Positions 5,767 through 35,038 of a DNA stretch of 64,000 nt are shown piece by piece. Position numbers and translations under genes: made by a program. The notes under the pieces were generated by a model. The model was not told the origin of the DNA. It searched no databases and was given only the letters and a program-made list of their open reading frames with translations. Position 1 is the stretch's first letter, and the number at the start of each line of letters is the position of its first letter. Origin of the DNA: Kondoa subrosea (Eukaryota); the NCBI GenBank assembly GCA_039545335.1, contig BCIN01000004.1, forward strand, positions 796,925 through 860,924, given 5' to 3'.

Positions 5767-8398
<2,632 letters not shown>

Positions 8399-15584: not shown

Positions 15585-17943
15585 TCACGATACAGGTTTG
15601 TAATCCTTCGGCACGGGATTTATCTTGTTCTCCAGCTGAAGGAAAGTCATGAGTGCTTCCGTTTGAGGGTTCGTGTACCAAGGAGCTGTCCCATTGTATT
15701 AGCACAATCACTTCCACGAGCTCCAACATACGATTGTCAGTCAGATCTCCTCCAGGTTCATTCGTACTCGGCGCGGTCTTTGTGAATTGCTGAATTTGCT
15801 CAACAGGTATTGATCCACCATTCGGTAAATTAGCTGCTACCCAATCTACTTGCTCATCCAGCAGTTTCTTGATTTCTGTAGATTGTGTAGGTAGGGATTG
15901 TTGATTCCGACTGAGCGAAAGATAAGGATGAAAAGCTCGCGTTATTGCCAACCATAAAGGATCGAACATGAGTTGCGTTGTTTCTGGAGCTTGCACGTCA
16001 GGTAGATCAATGAGCTGTACATATCATATGAGAATAGCCCAAGCCAAAGGAGTAAGGAACACTTACCTGAAGAAATTGTTTCCTGTGACCACACTTGCTA
16101 AGGGCGAGAAACTTGGTAGATTCCTTATCCATCTTCACAACCGGTATGTCAGCTCTTCTTTGATCCGTCCATCGTTGCTGTACCATCCCATCTTCTACTC
16201 CTTCATCCCCATCCAAATCGATCTGCACTTCTTCCGGGTTCGACTTTTCAGGACTGACAGGTCTACTAGGTATCCCAGCCAGACTAGCTAACAGAGCAGC
16301 TTTTGCTTTAGCCAATTCAACACTTTCATCCCTTTCCGAATCAGGTTGTACCAGTTTATCCAAACCTTCATTCTGTTGCATTTTTTCTTGAGGCAATGAA
16401 ACGATAGCTTGAGGATCTTTGATATCCATTATCACTTCTTCACCCTCAGAATCGAAGTCCACATCAATCTCAATCGCGTCTGGGTTTTCTGCTTTCTTCC
16501 CTTCTGCTTTCTTGTCTTCATTATCGGAAGAAGAAACGATCTCGATTTCATCCGGATTGATATCATCTAGAGTTTGTTCAAATTGACTACTGGAATGAGT
16601 TTCGACTGTTGATGTCCTAGAATGTGGATTGTGGTTGTTATGATTATTGATGCGGGAAAGGATTTGAGTTCGAGATTTATCATGTTTTACTAGAGCGGCG
16701 AATTTGGCATGCAAGTGTGCTGCGAACCATAATGGAGGTTGAAGAGTTGTTAGAAGGTTCATTAAAGGTGGTGAGCCTAAAGCGTTGCGTTTGATCTGTG
16801 CATGAAAAGCTTGATTAAACAACAAATGTTGCATGTCAGACAGTGAACGCACCTCATCCGCGAAATATGGCTTGAAGCCTATTAAGGCGGAAGTGTTGCC
16901 ATACTTGTCAATGTTTAATGGCCAGTCGTGAGATAGAAAGATGTCCGGCCTTTGCCGTTGTAGCTAGACGCATATATTGAGCTTCTGCTTTAGATTGGGT
17001 AGGGACAATGTACCTGTGCAAGACGATAGACATCGTACTGCCTGATATGATATATCGACCGCATTGTCGATTCAGAGTAGGGCATAGTTTCATGATGACC
17101 TGTACGAGAGGTCGGAGATTGATCCCTGAAACGGGAATATCTAAGCCAAATCTCGCACCTGAGTAATAGCTCCGATCATTGTAGATGCCGCTGGCGCCTG
17201 ATATCCGCAAACCATTGACTACGAGTGAACCTGCTCCGCCTAAGTAATATATCTGCGGTGCTATCCTACGTAGTGCAAATTAAGATCACCGCGAAAACGG
17301 CAGTAAATTAGAGCCATACCATCCTCCGTGATAACTGGTTTAATTAATCAGTCCATACATAGCGAATACCAAAACACACTGACAGTTCCCACATGTAATT
17401 GCTGGCTTCATGATTCCCACCGATAATGATAGTCAAAACGGGAGCGACAGTTTCACCTGAATAATACCTCGCGAACATCAGTCAGTCATATTCTTCGAAT
17501 TGACCGAAGGATAGGAACTCACTTGTGAAATCCGCCTAGAAGTCGATATTTGTCCGGTACAGCTAAACATTTTAGATCTGCTGGATTCCGAATTGCCTGC
17601 AGCATTTCTTTTAACGAAAAACCGAAAGGAAGCTTGTACGAAGACGAACCTGAAAGTCACCGCATATTAGCAGTAGGTCTACCTTGGAAGAAGTTCGTTC
17701 TTCAGCTTCTTTAAGCGAAGCATAGATCTAAAGGGAGATGAATGAATGATAAGGAAAGCAGAAAGAGAGAAGAAGAGAATGAATATACAGAATCTAATTG
17801 TCCGTGACAGCATCCTTCGATCTGAGGATCAGAGGAATGAGACGAGGAGAAAAAACAAAGAGAGACTGAGCGGAACAAACAGCAATCTGTCGAACTCATC
17901 AGTATTGCAACGGAAGAATGTGCGTGAGTAGACAGACCTTCAT
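15585..17943 (-). CDS. DBR1: RNA lariat debranching enzyme
   Basis: MK|IA|IEGCCHG start via microexons, [49 protein letters not shown]. Confidence 0.95.
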
Positions 17944-25083: not shown

Positions 25084-25836
25084 CTACATATTGTTGTTGT
25101 CCCTCGCTGTCTTTGCTTCACGATACAGAGCAGGTCGTCCACCTTTCTTATCATCCGGCCAACCTTCTGGGTACAGATGTGTGGTAACCTTGAAGCCCCT
25201 TGATGTGTATAGACCAAGACCTGCTGGACTGCTTTCCAGCCAAGTCGGATTATCTTGTTGGTCAATGTATTGCAGAAAGTGATCCAGAAGTTTCTTGCCG
25301 ATGCCGTTGCGTTGCGCTTTAGGGTCAATGACCAGCGTTTCAATATACCCTTTAAACCAAGCATCAAGACAGCTATCAAAAAAAGGGGACATGCCAATGC
25401 GGAACATACAACAGCCACCTTGCACACCTTCTTCAGCCAACTTGTGATTGATGGCCGCTTGAGAAGCTTTGCGATAGCTATTTGACATTTCTATTCGCAA
25501 AGCAGCCCAATCTTCTTTTTCCTCTTCTGACATCTTTTCTACATCCAGCATAGCCACTTCTCTGCCCGGTTTGCGTCCATAAATCACTCCAACTACCTCT
25601 CCTTCCGCATTGACAGCTTTCCATCCAATGTAATCAAAAACAAGTTGTCGACGAATGACGGAAGCTAGTCTTTGTACACGAACGTCTTGAGATGGACGCC
25701 ATTCGAATGGTTCCATAATTGCTGTGTCCGCTCCAAATTCATCAAACGCATTCAGTTGACATCGAGCAATGTTGATTAATTCGTCTTGAGAGTCACCGCG
25801 AACGGCGCTGATAGCAATGTCGAAAGTCATGGTCAT
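25084..25836 (-). CDS. GNAT-family acetyltransferase (single exon)
   Basis: 250-aa ORF with IETLVIDPKAQRNGIGKKLL (motif A) and LESSPAGLGLYTSRGF (motif B). Confidence 0.9.
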   Translation of the reverse strand: MTMTFDIAISAVRGDSQDELINIARCQLNAFDEFGADTAIMEPFEWRPSQDVRVQRLASVIRRQLVFDYIGWKAVNAEGEVVGVIYGRKPGREVAMLDVEKMSEEEKEDWAALRIEMSNSYRKASQAAINHKLAEEGVQGGCCMFRIGMSPFFDSCLDAWFKGYIETLVIDPKAQRNGIGKKLLDHFLQYIDQQDNPTWLESSPAGLGLYTSRGFKVTTHLYPEGWPDDKKGGRPALYREAKTARDNNNM

Positions 25837-26543
25837 ACAAGAGCAAGAGGCACATTGACTCGAATGTGCACAAGTTGGAGGAATCTATTTCTGGCTCACG
25901 GCAATGTCGAAACGCGTCAGATTGACCTCGCGTGATCGTACATTTCGTAGCTGTACCAAACAGAGCGGGTCAGTCTGCTTCCTTGTTACACACTGAACAG
26001 CTTTAAGCTGAAGGATGGGAAGGCATCAGAGAAAGCAAACACTGATTTTCTCTTTCTCCGCCGATATCGGTCAAGTTCGTCCATGTTTGCATCAATCCGT
26101 CAATGAGGTTTCAGGTGCTGTAAAGCAGGAAATGCAGCTTTGCTCTGCTCGAATCCTAGCTCCCTTTGCGATACCGACTTGCATTCGAGTCGCTTCCGAA
26201 GAATTCTCGCCTTCTTTCGTCAAGCGAGCCATTCCTTTTTGCCTGCTCAACGGTCATGAATGCTTGCGTATCACTCTGGACGTACTATGATTCTGTCAGT
26301 AATCAAGAAGAATCAGTCACTTTACATTTTTCAGCTTTGTCGTCTCCAGCAAAGGAGAACTCTACTGGCGGGCCAGAGCGAAACGGACTACGGACAGGAC
26401 CGATAGTACTCGAGATCGGTTCGGCGCTTCACATCATACTTGCAAGACGATACTGTACGGCCAAAGANTTTTGACGAAAATCGCGCCCAGATCAATCTCT
26501 GGTGTTCCCACACCGAGTATGAGCGCGTCAAATACCGGTTCGC

Positions 26544-26742
26544 GGGAGTTTGGCTGAGTGGTCTAAAGGTTGGTCTGCCCTGGTCGCTCGGTCTGGATCT
26601 GTCTGACTTGGATTTGCAGCGGTAGCCTAGAATTTCATAGTTCAGCTATTATCCTCTGGATGCGTAGGTTCAAAGTCAGTAGCTCAGATGTTGTTATGGT
26701 TCTCCGTCTGATCTGAGTGTTACAACAGTCCTGCAGCTCTCG
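26544..26742 (+). tRNA. tRNA-Ser(AGA) split by three introns: exons 26544-26568, 26620-26632, 26644-26674, 26729-26742
   Basis: The spliced 83-nt sequence folds as a cloverleaf: acceptor GGGAGTT/AGCTCTC, D stem GCT/AGC, anticodon stem GTAGC/GCTAT with loop CT-AGA-AA, variable arm ATCC-TCT-GGAT, T arm GTAGG-TTCAAAT-CCTGC, discriminator G73. Confidence 0.88.
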
Positions 26743-26754
26743 AACCGATTCAAC

Positions 26755-26763
26755 TTTTTTTTT
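26755..26763 (+). terminator. Oligo-T (T9) Pol III-type terminator
   Basis: T run begins after a 12-nt trailer downstream of G73. Confidence 0.7.
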
Positions 26764-27197
26764 GGGTGGAAATTTCGTTAATCTAGCTTCAACCAATGGC
26801 CCTTTCGCCTCAGACACTACCAATATACTGCTTCACCTGATTTCGTTCATCTGGAGCACACAAGTAACTGATCTCCAGTGGTGTTGGCAATTTCGACATA
26901 GGATGATTTACATGCTGACAAATTTTCCCGCCAGATTTCCAGAGACATCCTGGAGAGAGGATTTCAAGGTCTCAGTAGAGCATTCTAATACCACCATCTA
27001 CAACATCAGCGACATGCTGTAGTGTATGGAGATGATATTAGCTCTCTCTCACTGTGCTGAATGATGCTGCTTGCCCACTTCAAAATGCGCGCTGTGCACA
27101 AAGTCCAAGCTATGCTGCTCAAGCACGTTTCTCCCTTTTCCCTTTGTTCTTCTTGCTATCGTCTACAGCTGCTTCTCTTCTTCCATCCTTCCTTCAT

Positions 27198-27960
27198 ATG
27201 TTGAACCTTCGTATTCGGTCAGCAGTCGCAAAAGATGTCGCGGCTCTTGCAGACCTTTACACTCGCTCATCCGAGCAAAGCGCACTAGCAAATTTCGTTC
27301 AACCTCAGATCAAGAGCTCAAAGGTCTCCTTCCTTGCTTTAGAAACCTTCAAGCGAAGATTAGGCGAGACCTCTGTTGCTGAAATCAGGATCAAGAACTT
27401 CTGGACAGTCGTCGGAATGGTGATGTATCAGTCTGCTGGACCACTCAAGAGACCTACAGAGGAAGAAATGGCAGCGAAAGGTTAGTCCGAGGCTTTAAAT
27501 TTGGGGATCGGTCTGACCGCAATGATAGAGCTCATCAGATCGTGCGAAGATCAGTATAGGCGCGATCTAGTCAACCAAGCGCTGAAGGAGAGGGAATCGA
27601 GGTGAAATTTCCCATTTCGAGGCTATCTTCTTGGCTGAATTTCCTTCGAAAGATACTTCGCAGGCCATATCAAAGCAGAGATGCATTTCGATCCTTCCTT
27701 TGCTCATCTGAGGTACGATGATTTGCCTATCGTGAAGTCTGCAGCTCATTGCCAACAGCATTGAGAGTGCACTTTCGCAACATGTCAAGGATGTAGCCAA
27801 TCGTCTTCAACTCCCAATCTGTCTCATTTCTGACTCGCCAAATCAGTGCTTCGATACTCTCGAGCGCGTTGTCATCCAAGACGATCGCCCAAGTCTGAAA
27901 CGATCATTGCTTCTTTCGATCCAATCATACAGCCCGATAACGAGCGCAAGAATAGAATGA
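27198..27960 (+). CDS. Divergent GNAT-fold protein, three introns
   Basis: MLNLRIRSAVAKDVAALADL GNAT-type start. Introns at 27481-27528 (GTTAGT..CTGAC..TAG), ~27602-27652 and ~27713-27758 restore an open frame ending ...SARIE*. Confidence 0.65.
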
Positions 27961-27989: not shown

Positions 27990-29110
27990 GACAGAAAGCA
28001 AGAGCTACGGTAATCCGATGCTATGTCTTTCATTGACACGGGCAAGACAGGCCTGAGAGGTTTTGACAAACTTGCCAATGGCTTCCAGTTGACTTAGAGC
28101 GGCCACTGCATTTGCCTGCTAATCGCTTCATACCCACAGAACCAGTTAGCATAGCTGAATATCGAGCTCTTGATACCCTTTCACTGGAATCCCGGGCTTG
28201 CATACATTGGCCAGCAAGCTTCCTCCATTGAAAACATGAAAGCGGTGTAGCAGTGGAAGGATTGTGTGCTGGTTGTGATGTGGTCGCCTGAACGTATACT
28301 GTGATGGACCTGCGCAGCCTGATTGGATCTCGTCTGGCCCAGGCTGGCCTTTCTTTGCTGAAATCAAACAAGGTCTTTGCGAGGCATTTGGACATCACTG
28401 CTTGACTTGTGAATGGTAGCGGGGTCGAGAGCAGAAATGTATGCTCATACTTCAGCACTCGAGCGATTCCAGCAGTCAGATAGGATTGATCTGCGAAGCA
28501 ATGCAGCGGTTTGCTTGATCGGCAAATTATAAAGCTCTCATCATCATTTCTCTTGCTCAGGAATCAGCTCGGCTTGTCACGATCTGTTGTATCCGGCCGT
28601 ACTGGATTCATCGAATGCACTACTCCGCATATTTGTGCGCTTGCAAATAATCTCGATACACGCATCGTACAAAAGATCGAGCTGCAAAAGTGTCGACCTT
28701 CTTAATGGCCTTACCACGACAAGCGGAAGAGAAGAGACTACTTCGCACCGCTTGACTGCTTTCACAAAGTCTCCTTTGCAGCTCTTCCTCGAATCAGAAA
28801 GTGCTGTTCTCGCTTTGTTTTGTCAGCTGCGGTTCATCTACGAGCAGATTTTCAGATATGTATTGCGAACACTGCCATTCGCTCTACTTTCAAGACTTGC
28901 TGCATCAAATTTGTACCTGTTCACAAGATAGTCAGAATTGTCCTGAAGCGGAAAAGCACTCACCACCTATAAAGCAGCAGTAAAAGATGTCCAGCATACT
29001 GTGATGCAATCGCGATTCCGGCTTTGAGTTCGCCGTATCGAATCAGTGCAATCTACGATTTCGCCTTCGTTCGTCAAGTGAGCCATTCCTTTTTGCCTGC
29101 TCAACGGTCA
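27990..29110 (-). other. Unresolved intron-containing or decayed gene
   Basis: Clear minus-strand intron gtgagt...ctgac...aacag near 28917-28963 flanked by an open frame (LLLLLYRW|YKFDAAS). A full ORF could not be built. Confidence 0.25.
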
Positions 29111-30137
29111 TGAATGCTTGCGTATCACTCTGGACGTACTATGATTCTGTCAGTAATCAAGAAGAATCAGTCACTTTACATTTTTCAGCTTTGTCGTCTC
29201 CAGCAAAGGAGAACTCTACTGGCGGGCCAGAGCGAAACGGACTACGGACAGGACCGATAGTACTCGAGATCGGTTCGGCGCTTCACATCATACTTGCAAG
29301 ACGATACTGTACGGCCAAAGAATTTTGACGAAAATCGCGCCCAGATCAATCTCTGGTGTTCCCACACCGAGTATGAGCGCGTCAAATACCGGTTCGCGGG
29401 AGTTTGGCTGAGTGGTCTAAAGGTTGGTCTGCCCTGGTCGCTCGGTCTGGATCTGTCTGACTTGGATTTGCAGCGGTAGCCTAGAATTTCATAGTTCAGC
29501 TATTATCCTCTGGATGCGTAGGTTCAAAGTCAGTAGCTCAGATGTTGTTATGGTTCTCCGTCTGATCTGAGTGTTACAACAGTCCTGCAGCTCTCGAACC
29601 GATTCAACTTTTTTTTGGGTGGAAATTTCGTTAATCTAGCTTCAACCAATGGCCCTTTCGCCTCAGACACTACCAATATACTGCTTCACCTGATTTCGTT
29701 CAACTGGCGTACCCGAGTTATTGAATTCCAGCGGTGTTGGCAAATTCGACATAGGATGATTTACATGCTGACAAATTTTCCCGCCAGATTTCCAGAGACA
29801 TCCTGGAGAGAGGATTTCAAGGTCTCAGTAGAGCATTCTAATACCACCATCTACAACATCAGCGACATGCTGTAGTGTATGGAGATGATATTAGCTCTCT
29901 GTCACTGTGCTGAATGATGCTGCTTGCCCACTTCACAATGCGCGCTGTGCACAAAGTCCAAGCTATGCTGCCTAAACACAGCGCCATTTCTCCCTTTTCC
30001 CTTGGATCTTCTTGCTATCGTCTACAGTTGCTTCTCTTCTTCCATCCTCCTTCGCATGTCGGACCTTCGCATTCGGTCAGCAGTCGCGAAAGATGTCGCG
30101 GCTCTTGCAGACCTTTACACTCGCTCATGGGAGCAAA
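29061..30137. repeat. Direct repeat copy 2 (~1.07 kb) of 26207-27279
   Basis: Same sequence as copy 1; ends inside the duplicated GNAT 5' end. Confidence 0.97.
29398..29596 (+). tRNA. tRNA-Ser(AGA), second identical copy; introns 29423-29473, 29487-29497, 29529-29582
   Basis: Identical to 26544-26742; followed by T8 at 29609-29616. Confidence 0.88.
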
Positions 30138-30151
30138 TGCGGAATGAATGA
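30056..30151 (+). pseudogene. Truncated duplicate of the GNAT 5' end
   Basis: MSDLRIRSAVAKDVAALADLYTRSWEQMRNE*; homology to the gene at 27198 stops at the repeat boundary. Confidence 0.75.
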
Positions 30152-31723: not shown

Positions 31724-33055
31724 CTATAGTACATCACCAAGCTTATGCGTCGCGCTTCCTCTTGCTGCAGGTTTCGGCTGATTTGCAGAAGGTTTCCATC
31801 CAATCTATCTCGCGACAATTTAGCTTTGTCGTACAGTGACAGCGAATCAACGCACTGCATATATGACCTGGAAAGTAGCAGGAACTGTTCCGTCTTCATT
31901 CCCATGTAGTGCTGTTCAAATTGCTCGATACCAATCTCAATGAGAACGGAGAGGAACTTACCTGAATAAATCGCACTGGCAGCCATCAACTCATCTCTAG
32001 GCAGACTTGCAGCTCTATGCCAAACAGCGTTACTTTCTCCCATTGCGCGCAAATCTTCCATCAATTCAATCATTGAAGGGTAATTGATCTTGATCTCATC
32101 CACATCAATCGTAGGTAGAGCGAAACCAGCTCGCGATATCAGGTTGGTCAGTGATTGAGAATCGGTCATTGGTGATACGCGTGGTGTGAGACCGCCCGAT
32201 CGTTCGAGAGAAGCGAGTTGGAGTGAAGTTCTGCTCAGTGGTCAAAGGATTCATACAAAAGAGAAGAGGACCTTACCGAAGTTCGAAAAGCGTGTCACCG
32301 CCTAACATAGCGCAAAGAAAAGCTCCATCTGGTCTTAATGTCCGCCGCACTTGTATCAGTACTCCTATAAAAGGCAAGTCTTTGAGCCGGACACCAGATT
32401 GGAAGCATTCGTGCAACGTACCAGGTAGATCATTCACCCAATGCATGCCCATACTAGACATGATACAATCTTGCGAATTCTCTTCAAACGGTAGAAGCTC
32501 GTTATCGGAAAGCAATACTCGTTCGACCGGAACTTGAAAGGCAATAAGGCGGTTTCTAAAGGTATACCGTTGATAACTTACTGTCATACTCTATATCTTG
32601 ATCCCTGTACAATGTCTTCTCTGTTTACGTATGAGTATAAAACATTGGAGACAAATGGAATAGGCTCACCCGAAGAATCGACCATTGTTACTTTCTGAGT
32701 GATTTCAGGCTCCATTTCTTTGATTATATGACCAGCACCAGAGTAGAGATCCATAATAGAAGGAAATCGACGTTTGATATCCTGGACATCCGATTACAAG
32801 AAGATCACATAAGAAACGCGATGACACAAAAAAGCGAAAGCAAAGAAGTACAAGTAAACGATCTACCATAACAGCAGCTAACTCATCGCGAACATAATCT
32901 GTAAGTCTGCTGGTTTCAACATCTGATGCAGCTCTGTTGCGCTGAGCGAGTTTCGATCGAGAATCAAAGACATTCAATGCAGAAGAAGGAGCTAAAGGAG
33001 AGGTGGATATAGAAGTAGCCAGCGATCTGACCAATTTCGGGACTGGCCCTCGCAT
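31724..33055 (-). CDS. NDUFAF5-like SAM-dependent methyltransferase-fold complex I assembly factor
   Basis: Mitochondrial presequence, VFDSRSKLAQRNRAA, MHWVNDLPG, AMLGGDTLFELR, LTPRVSPM, DLRAMGESNA, IGWKPS. Confidence 0.92.
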
Positions 33056-33179
33056 GTCGAACACACCCTCGTTTCAGGAAAAACAGCAACATTCTTGTTC
33101 GGAAACAGTCACACGCGAAATTGAAGCCCAGGATAGGAGGAGTGACAGTGGACAGACACTGTGTTGGATACCCAGGACT

Positions 33180-35038
33180 ATGACTACCTTACGACTAGAT
33201 ACACTGTTGCTTTCGCCAGCTTCCAAGTGGGCTGAATTTGGTACTTCGAGCCCTGATCTAGGCCATGGAAGGGAGAATGAGAGGATGCGGTTTATGACGC
33301 CTTTACCGTCGCCTTCAGAGTATGGGTCGCAATTAGGGCATGGGTCAATAGCAAATGGCAGACAGAGGCAGGTATCAGATGCTGGAAGCGATACTTCTTC
33401 TGTCAAATCAGCTCGCAAGAGTAGGACTATGGACTTCTTCAACTCTCCTGTAGCAGTATCCAAGCCTGTCTTCCCTCCTTCAACTTCACTTTCAGCTTCC
33501 ACATCAAGTAAACAGCCTGAACATGGATTGTCCGCAAGCTATACTTCTCGACAGACGCGCTCAGTATCTGATGCTTCTTCTTCTCGATCTCTATCTCCAC
33601 CTTCACCGCGTAGTCGTTCGAATCGGTCAGAAAGACAAGATCTGTCAGCTGAATCTTCGACTTCCCTCAACTCACCTTCCAAACCTTACAGCGGCAAACA
33701 AGGTCCTATAGGCTTGGGCAACTCACCAAAGAAGTATCTTAATCAAGATGGAACCTTGCCATTGAATCCACCAAGTCGATATCCTACAATCCTCCGACCG
33801 AGACAAAGAGCTTCTTCAGGTGCACAAGAAATATCAGATCGTCTTTCGGATCATGTAGTATCTCCTGTAGAAGCAACATCACCTACTGATCTTATACCTT
33901 TACCTGAAGAAGAACAAGATCCAGAACTCAAGCCTGGAACGTTTTTGAATCCTGAATACAAGATCCTCCGCTTACTAGGCAAAGGCGCTTTTAGTAAGGT
34001 GGTTCTAGCAGAACCAATAGCAGAAAGAGACAAGAAACCAGTTGCTATCAAGTTGGTGGATCGAAAAACATGTCAAAAGAATGATCGAATGCGAACAAGT
34101 GTCATGAGAGAAGTTGAAGTTCTCAAGCACATACATCACCCTTCTCTTATACATCTCCTCACTTCCTTCAACACTATGAGATATACTTGTCTGGTGCTCG
34201 AATTCGCGCCTGGGGGAGAACTTTTCGATCTGCTGGCAACTCATCATGACCGATTTACTGAACCTTTTGTACGGAGAATATTCGGAGAATTGGTGGATGT
34301 AATTGGTTGGATGCACAGTATTGGTTTAGTGCATCGAGATATCAAGTTGGAGAGTCAGTTTCATTCTTTCTGATTTATAATGCCTGGAACCGATCTTTCT
34401 TCTTGTATGCAGATATTATTCTCACAGCACATCCTTTCTCCTCACTGTCTACTTCTTTACCTTCACCTCTAATCAAACTTTCCGATTTTGGTCTTTCTCG
34501 ATTCATCAACTTATCTGAACCTACTTTACAAACAAGATGTGGTTCTGAAGAATACGCAGCGCCTGAATTGATCATGGGTCAATCTTACGATGGTCGACAA
34601 ACAGACGCATGGGCATTAGGCGTAGTCTTGTTCGCGTTACTTACTGGAGCTTTACCTTTCCTTGCCAACACAACAGAAAGGGAATCAGAATATTCAAGAC
34701 GAGCAGTATCTTCGCCAGTGGATATGAAAGCTCGGAAAACATATTTGATGAAGATTGCTCGAGCAGATTATCGCTGGCCTGCTGTCAATACAGCAGAAGG
34801 AGCAACGAATACCTTGGTTAATGAGAAAAGCAAACAAGTAGCAGACCGATTGTTGGTCCGCGTACCTGCTTCAAGAGCCAAAGTGGATGATTTATGGGAT
34901 TTAGAATGGATGCAAGGATCTGAAAGAAGAGCTCGAAGTGAAAGTTTGGATCAAGATCAAAGAGATGTTTGGTATCTACCTGAAACGAAAGTTGACCGCT
35001 TGCTGCATTCCGAAGATGGAGAAGGAGAAGTGTTGTAA
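33180..35038 (+). CDS. Ser/Thr protein kinase (CAMK group, Prr1/Nnk1-like)
   Basis: LGKGAFSKV, VAIK, HRDIKLE, DFGLSR, RCGSEEYAAPE, DAWALGV; one intron near 34353-34412. Confidence 0.93.

Follow-up and report, generated by a model that had tools for sequence, protein, structure and literature searches.

Normally, textbooks keep the two nuclear splicing systems apart. The reviews that we cite, here and below for the sections that treat these introns, draw the same line: spliceosomal introns are assigned to transcripts of RNA polymerase II (Pol II) and to a few small nuclear RNA (snRNA) and ribosomal RNA (rRNA) genes, and introns removed by the tRNA-splicing endonuclease (TSEN) to tRNAs (PMC5855946, PMC4090602, PMC12530127), the two being handled as unrelated classes by van Hoof et al. 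2025 (PMC12530127). Here we describe a tRNA-Ser(AGA) gene, present in two copies in a 64,000-nucleotide stretch of Kondoa subrosea DNA (contig BCIN01000004.1; "the window" below means this whole stretch), that is interrupted three times. Two of the inserts, I1 and I2, are exact spliceosomal-type (U2-type, GT-AG) introns by the standard of this genome, as established in silico, and the third is an ordinary TSEN-type intron at position 37/38. [quoted passage not shown]

The closest described systems are found among other non-coding RNAs. Spliceosomal introns are known in the genes of the U6, U2, U5 and U1 snRNAs and in rRNA genes, although what determines insertion into non-coding RNAs is called unclear in the same source (PMC5855946). 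The U6 intron of Schizosaccharomyces pombe is removed by the spliceosome, and fungal U6 genes may contain as many as four introns (PMC5855946). The U6 genes of S. pombe and other fungi (Tani and Ohshima 1989, 1991; Canzler 2016, in PMC5855946) resemble our locus in three respects: a short GT-AG intron with canonical sites lies in a small structured RNA gene, which in the case of U6 is transcribed by Pol III; several unrelated introns can occupy a single gene (up to four in U6); and the origin proposed for them is reverse splicing followed by reverse transcription. In contrast, the insertions into U6 are explained by its place in the spliceosome's catalytic centre, whereas a tRNA has no such proximity; the tRNA host also has a TSEN-type intron, so that two splicing systems would have to act on one RNA; and splicing of S. 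pombe U6 was shown experimentally, whereas that of the tRNA is predicted from sequence. The introns of the U2, U1 and U5 genes of Rhodotorula hasegawae and of ascomycete rRNA genes (Takahashi 1993, 1996; Bhattacharya 2000, in PMC5855946) are likewise spliceosomal introns in fungal non-coding genes; in the U1 and rRNA cases the host RNAs are also away from the catalytic centre, and the snRNA cases come from a basidiomycete. Unlike our locus, however, these genes yield Pol II or Pol I products, and none of them is a tRNA.

A second body of precedent concerns tRNA genes interrupted at unusual places. Yoshihisa 2014 (PMC4090602) states that insertions in the D or T arm of eukaryotic tRNA genes usually mark pseudogenes, the exceptions being nucleomorphs and Cyanidioschyzon merolae, in which such introns are short and depend on a bulge-helix-bulge (BHB) structure. 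The genes of cryptophyte and chlorarachniophyte nucleomorphs and of C. merolae (Kawach 2005; Soma 2007, 2013, in PMC4090602) are similar to ours in that they are of nuclear type, contain two or three introns, some of which interrupt the D and T arms, and are missed by standard scanners. Their ectopic introns, however, are 3-24 nt long (Guillardia) and BHB-dependent (C. merolae), whereas those described here are 51 and 54 nt long, offer no BHB and carry spliceosomal signals. With the eukaryotic tRNA pseudogenes covered in the same review (PMC4090602) our locus shares an insertion in the D or T arm within an isoacceptor family that usually has multiple copies; it differs from them in having two exact GT-AG introns and flawless exons. 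The first-pass annotation, made from the letters of the window, knew of no established spliceosomal intron in a tRNA gene, and our full-text literature searches likewise retrieved no paper describing one, subscription journals and unindexed papers lying outside their coverage. A metagenome scan for T arms split at 59/60 by a GT...AG insert gave 23 loci, approximately the number expected by chance, and 0/23 became a tRNA once the insert was removed.

The letters quoted in the first-pass annotation for 26544-26742 (+ strand) and all of its segment boundaries check out (Table 1), and its claim of two GT-AG inserts plus a canonical one at 37/38 agrees with ARAGORN, which, given the locus with I1 and I2 deleted, reports a tRNA-Ser(AGA) whose anticodon loop still holds an intron of 11 nt and, when this intron is deleted too, draws a complete class II cloverleaf. 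The drawing comprises 85 nt, since it adds one leader-trailer pair to the 83-nt product. By our application of the standard numbering this product is, as had been claimed, an 83-nt class II tRNA with G73, whose D stem is joined at 24/25 and whose T loop is joined at 59/60. As we read the cloverleaf, every stem position is paired and the usual invariant bases are present; the anticodon loop and the T loop have 7 nt each, the variable region has 14 nt with a 4-bp stem, and the anticodon is AGA. We take the long variable arm, G73 and the serine anticodon to be serine identity elements. The energy of the cloverleaf is -21.3 kcal/mol vs -24.3 kcal/mol for the minimum free energy fold of the spliced product.

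The boundaries of I2 are unique, and those of I1 can be shifted by 1 nt, with GT-AG present in just one of the two placements. The putative branch A lies at 26606 in I1, 13 nt from the 3' end of the insert, and at 26711 in I2, 17 nt from the end; in I1 and I2 alike, the first AG to occur more than 6 nt past the branch is the acceptor whose use restores the tRNA. The prediction that standard scanners would miss such a gene was borne out: ARAGORN run with its intron option finds no tRNA in the unspliced locus and none across the whole window, and Rfam gives no match at the gathering score and none at E<=10 on 26300-27000. Two weak matches to archaeal small nucleolar RNA models, returned by Rfam at E<=5 over the whole window, were judged to be noise. 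As a separate observation, the 5' leader (26536-26542) is complementary over 7 nt to the 3' end and trailer of the gene (26741-26747); chance would produce roughly one or two matches of this kind in the locus.

Chance resemblance of the two inserts to introns is excluded. We defined a composite signature consisting of a GTNNGT start, a CTRAY motif with its A 8-25 nt from the end, a YAG end and a length of 45-62 nt. This signature occurs 77 times on the two strands of the window vs 15.2 +/- 4.6 times (maximum 26) in 40 first-order Markov simulations, and thus marks real introns in this window; its probability in a random 51-mer is 1e-5, and in a random 54-mer 7e-6. We also removed GT..AG segments exhaustively. 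Removal of one segment of 40-75 nt yielded 0 tRNA calls among 17,276 candidates in the window, and removal of two segments (206,272 pairs) yielded calls only at both Ser loci, always with the same I2 boundaries, together with one junk call. Reversed and complemented control sequences gave a single tRNA call in 428,770 pairs. The junk call in the window is a tRNA-Gly(CCC) at 32115-32247 (+) that depends on deleting two arbitrary GT..AG segments; its acceptor stem is mispaired and its T loop aberrant, and it was rejected as a false positive.

For comparison with the mRNA introns of this genome we used a reference set of 16 homology-validated introns (eight from DBR1, seven from a poly(A) polymerase gene and one from a kinase gene), which were placed independently of branch and acceptor motifs. 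An intron finder that bridges open reading frames (ORFs) without homology proved too noisy, and homology-guided junctions were used instead; in the poly(A) polymerase set, low-scoring junctions and 39-nt in-frame junctions were left out as unreliable. The validated introns span 46-67 nt (median about 54 nt), compared with 51 nt for I1 and 54 nt for I2. Their donors are loose (GTATAT, GTTCGT, GTGAGT, GTCAGT and others), and the donor of I2, GTCAGT, is that of 2/16; the donor of I1, GTTGGT, has G at +5 and T at +6, as in most validated introns. A YAG end is found in 15/16, both I1 and I2 ending in CAG, and a strict CTRAY, present in both inserts, in 7/16. Among 10,495 GT..AG segments in this size class, I2 ranks at the 99.7th percentile by donor/acceptor score. 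The assertion that the inserts look like the window's mRNA introns therefore holds for length, donor, branch motif and acceptor.

The best named relatives of the DBR1 and poly(A) polymerase proteins belong to all three subphyla of the Basidiomycota, at about 30-53% identity, and include Mixia, Rhodotorula, Microbotryum, Tilletia, Malassezia and many Agaricomycetes, none of the annotated relatives being close; the host would accordingly seem to be a basidiomycete with short introns. In DBR1, a further in-frame intron candidate of 57 nt, at 16796-16852, is backed by 6/6 homologues.

Table 1. Features of the window. tRNA positions follow our own numbering, taken from the ARAGORN cloverleaf.
Feature	Coordinates	Strand	Remarks
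tRNA exon 1	26544..26568	+	acceptor 5' strand, D stem 5' strand, D loop; positions 1-24
Insert I1, 51 nt, spliceosomal-type	26569..26619	+	donor GTTGGT, branch-like CTGAC, acceptor GCAG
tRNA exon 2a	26620..26632	+	positions 25 and 26, anticodon stem 5' strand, loop to position 37; anticodon AGA
Canonical tRNA intron, 11 nt, after position 37	26633..26643	+	ARAGORN: intron length 11, anticodon loop
tRNA exon 2b	26644..26674	+	position 38, anticodon stem 3' strand, long variable arm, T stem 5' strand, T loop to 59
Insert I2, 54 nt, spliceosomal-type	26675..26728	+	donor GTCAGT, branch-like CTGAT, acceptor ACAG
tRNA exon 3	26729..26742	+	T loop position 60, T stem 3' strand, acceptor 3' strand, discriminator G73
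T9 run, Pol III terminator-like	26755..26763	+	12 nt after discriminator
Second interrupted gene, 199/199 nt identical	29398..29596	+	I1' 29423-29473, I2' 29529-29582; T8 at 29609-29616
GNAT gene	25087-25884	-	Pfam; borders the 1.3-kb spacer containing the tRNA gene
GNAT-like ORF	starts near 27197	+	other border of the 1.3-kb spacer; ~450 nt downstream of the tRNA gene
DBR1 (lariat-debranching enzyme) gene	15600-17821	-	at least 8 introns of 46-61 nt
Poly(A) polymerase gene	~6239-8323	-	Pfam PAP_NTPase and PAP_RNA-bind; at least 7 homology-supported introns, 47-67 nt
Kinase intron, 59 nt, donor GTCAGT	34354-34412	+	splits the catalytic loop of the protein kinase gene 32946-35035; removal restores HRDIKLEN

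The identical second copy of the gene had been overlooked in the first-pass annotation. It belongs to a segment of some 1.1 kb that is duplicated in tandem (about 26206-27290 and 29060-30140, the copies lying 2.85 kb apart) and that holds the tRNA gene and the start of the GNAT-like ORF. Between 26226 and 26849 the copies do not differ, save for the length of the T run (T9 vs T8), then show 11 differences within 42 nt (26850-26891), return to identity up to about 27047 and fall to 80-90% by 27290, a patchy divergence that suggests gene conversion. Separately built contigs of two DNA runs, both from one sample, carry both inserts, one of them matching copy 1 and the other copy 2. Among the contigs of the two runs there was no joint and no loose end across the inserts, contigs that share just the short exons being possibly unplaced. 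The window has a single N, at 26468, which precedes the tRNA gene by 76 nt; at the corresponding place the second copy reads A.

As to its promoter signals, the locus looks as tRNA genes made by Pol III do; a host transcript made by Pol II is an improbable competitor, to which we return below. Judged by the consensus sequences, the A-box-like motif TGGCTGAGTGG within exon 1 is intact, and the B box is cut after position 59 in such a way that the DNA keeps 8/9 fixed positions contiguous. A T run follows 12 nt past the 3' end (T9 in copy 1, T8 in copy 2), and the longest T run inside the 199 nt is at most 3. By simple counting, a promoter-sparing choice of insertion sites has no significance.

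If both copies are indeed functional, their expression might proceed as follows. The gene would be transcribed, most likely by Pol III, and the spliceosome, working by intron definition, would take out I1 and I2, just as it removes the intron from the Pol III-made precursor of S. pombe U6. Only at that stage could the D and T arms fold into the elbow required by RNase P, RNase Z and the TSEN ruler, after which the 11-nt intron would be cut and its exons ligated, and the ends would be matured. RNase P, RNase Z and the TSEN ruler would be expected to act after the spliceosome, because the D stem and the T loop cannot form with I1 and I2 in place. We see about an even chance that the outcome is a working tRNA whose precursor passes the spliceosome twice and the tRNA-splicing endonuclease once before folding.

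The most economical route by which the two introns could have reached the gene is reverse splicing of excised introns into the tRNA, followed by reverse transcription and recombination, a route likewise suggested for introns in snRNA genes, and this is probably how they arose; Ares et al. 2024 consider reverse splicing by intron-lariat spliceosomes a possible route of intron transposition (PMC11146597). Since an intron inserted by reverse splicing sits where the spliceosome could reach, forward splicing from the same position is plausible. Local duplication as the origin of the inserts was considered and rejected, the exons sharing just 6-nt repeats with the inserts. Two insertion events in one gene, flawless exons and a kept terminator lead us to favour a live gene over a dead one.

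Several observations weigh against a functional, spliceosome-dependent gene. The match of I1 to the mRNA introns is weaker than the first-pass annotation implied: its donor/acceptor score reaches only the 82nd percentile of GT..AG segments, a G at +4 is seen in 0/16 validated introns, and its G+C content is 0.57 vs 0.34-0.49 in the nine validated introns measured. I2 contains a 7-bp inverted repeat (26683-26689 / 26711-26717) that forms a hairpin in the predicted fold of the precursor and overlaps the branch-like CTGAT, and this hairpin could hinder, or time, the use of the branch site. At its tenth position the B box is broken by I2, with a T in place of the consensus C. The avoidance of T runs inside the gene is insignificant, with 0.59 runs of T4 or longer expected per 199 nt. 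Because the flanks are as identical as the gene itself, the pair of copies is uninformative on selection. Pol III transcripts reportedly go unspliced in animal cells. Finally, there may be an uninterrupted tRNA-Ser(AGA) elsewhere in the genome, which would make the locus dispensable.

For a tRNA gene with D- and T-arm inserts, one should above all consider that it is a young pseudogene: real introns would have entered the gene, the precursor would be spliced poorly or not at all, uninterrupted tRNA-Ser(AGA) genes would do the work, and the 1.1-kb segment would have been duplicated later. We regard this as possible but rather unlikely. It could amount to a recent double hit in a redundant gene copy, and the identity of copies and flanks, which indicates that the duplication is recent or has been homogenised and gives no sign of selection, sits well with it, as do the B box broken at one fixed position and the mediocre quality of I1 as an intron; it is also how such inserts in eukaryotic tRNA genes are usually read, which tells against a functional gene (PMC4090602). 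On the other hand, two independent and exact intron insertions into an already dead gene are hard to explain, and the 83 exon nt contain neither a mispaired stem position nor a lost invariant base, so that the decay one would expect of a pseudogene is not seen. Moreover, the splice signals are complete in both inserts, the terminator run has been retained in both copies, and an intron that arrived by reverse splicing lies by construction in a context accessible to the spliceosome.

Another scenario retains function and dispenses with Pol III. Spliceosomal splicing is normally coupled to Pol II, which counts in favour of a Pol II transcript, be it one that serves the tRNA separately or the GNAT-like gene's 5' leader (this gene begins near 27197), from which I1 and I2 would be spliced co-transcriptionally and the tRNA cut out by RNase P and RNase Z. 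The tRNA gene indeed lies about 450 nt upstream of an ORF on the same strand and was duplicated along with it, and the B box is imperfect. We nevertheless find this scenario quite unlikely, given the intact A box and the T9/T8 run 12 nt past the 3' end, both as in ordinary Pol III tRNA genes; moreover, the U6 precursor of S. pombe is made by Pol III and is spliced (PMC5855946).

Very unlikely, in our view, is that the inserts are of transposon type, that is, introner-like elements or miniature transposons bearing splice signals that landed in the tRNA gene, their splicing being another matter. Such an element should leave further copies or traces of its insertion, whereas the 64 kb hold neither I1 nor I2 a further time outside the tandem duplicate (other matches reach 11-12 nt at best), the two are dissimilar to each other, and neither a target-site duplication nor terminal inverted repeats are present. 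The insert flanks are AAAG/...CAG/CGG for I1 and CAAA/...CAG/TCC for I2 (slashes marking the splice sites), with at most 1-2 nt in common. Introners that bring their own splice sites are known from several eukaryotes (PMC11282704), and I2 does contain a 7-bp inverted repeat; this sole inverted repeat, however, is internal to I2, and both inserts have the size of ordinary introns of this genome.

Could the inserts be removed by something other than the spliceosome, either as ectopic introns of the TSEN/BHB type, as in Cyanidioschyzon and nucleomorphs, or by an endonuclease not yet described? Nucleomorphs and C. merolae do have ectopic tRNA introns in the D and T arms, several per gene, and 59/60 is a known intron site in archaea (PMC4090602). 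In the sequence, however, the structure that would be needed is missing. We looked for two 3-nt bulges holding the splice sites, a 4-bp helix between them and flanking helices, trying 16 registers for each insert, and none could be drawn: the central helix of I2 reaches at most 3/4 pairs, and that of I1 reaches 4/4 in just two registers, both of which have 0 flanking pairs. Non-spliceosomal removal would also make it a coincidence that both inserts possess every spliceosomal signal (P ~1e-5 each), and the ectopic introns reported for nucleomorphs, at 3-24 nt, are of another size (PMC4090602), so that we consider non-spliceosomal removal highly improbable. Chance resemblance or an assembly artefact is effectively refuted already: a single sample stands behind the sequence, both DNA runs deriving from it, but each run's own contigs, built separately, include the locus and its two inserts and together cover both copies, spurious tRNA calls occur at 1 / 428,770 control pairs, and the signature has P ~1e-5 per insert.

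Should both copies of the gene prove functional and spliceosome-dependent, this would be the first tRNA shown to have spliceosomal introns and the first RNA known to depend on the two nuclear splicing systems together. The spliceosome would gain one more class of RNA among its substrates, and U6 would be joined by a second independent case of a spliced, probable Pol III transcript. It would also mean that functional tRNA genes can escape ARAGORN and covariance-model scans, and that some fungal tRNA sets are under-counted by all standard scanners. With respect to the origin of new introns, it would be natural evidence from an RNA that has no privileged route to the spliceosome's catalytic centre, indicating that reverse splicing can seed introns in abundant RNAs far from that centre. 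Even if the locus is a pseudogene, it would still be a rare footprint of exact intron transposition into a gene that does not encode an mRNA.

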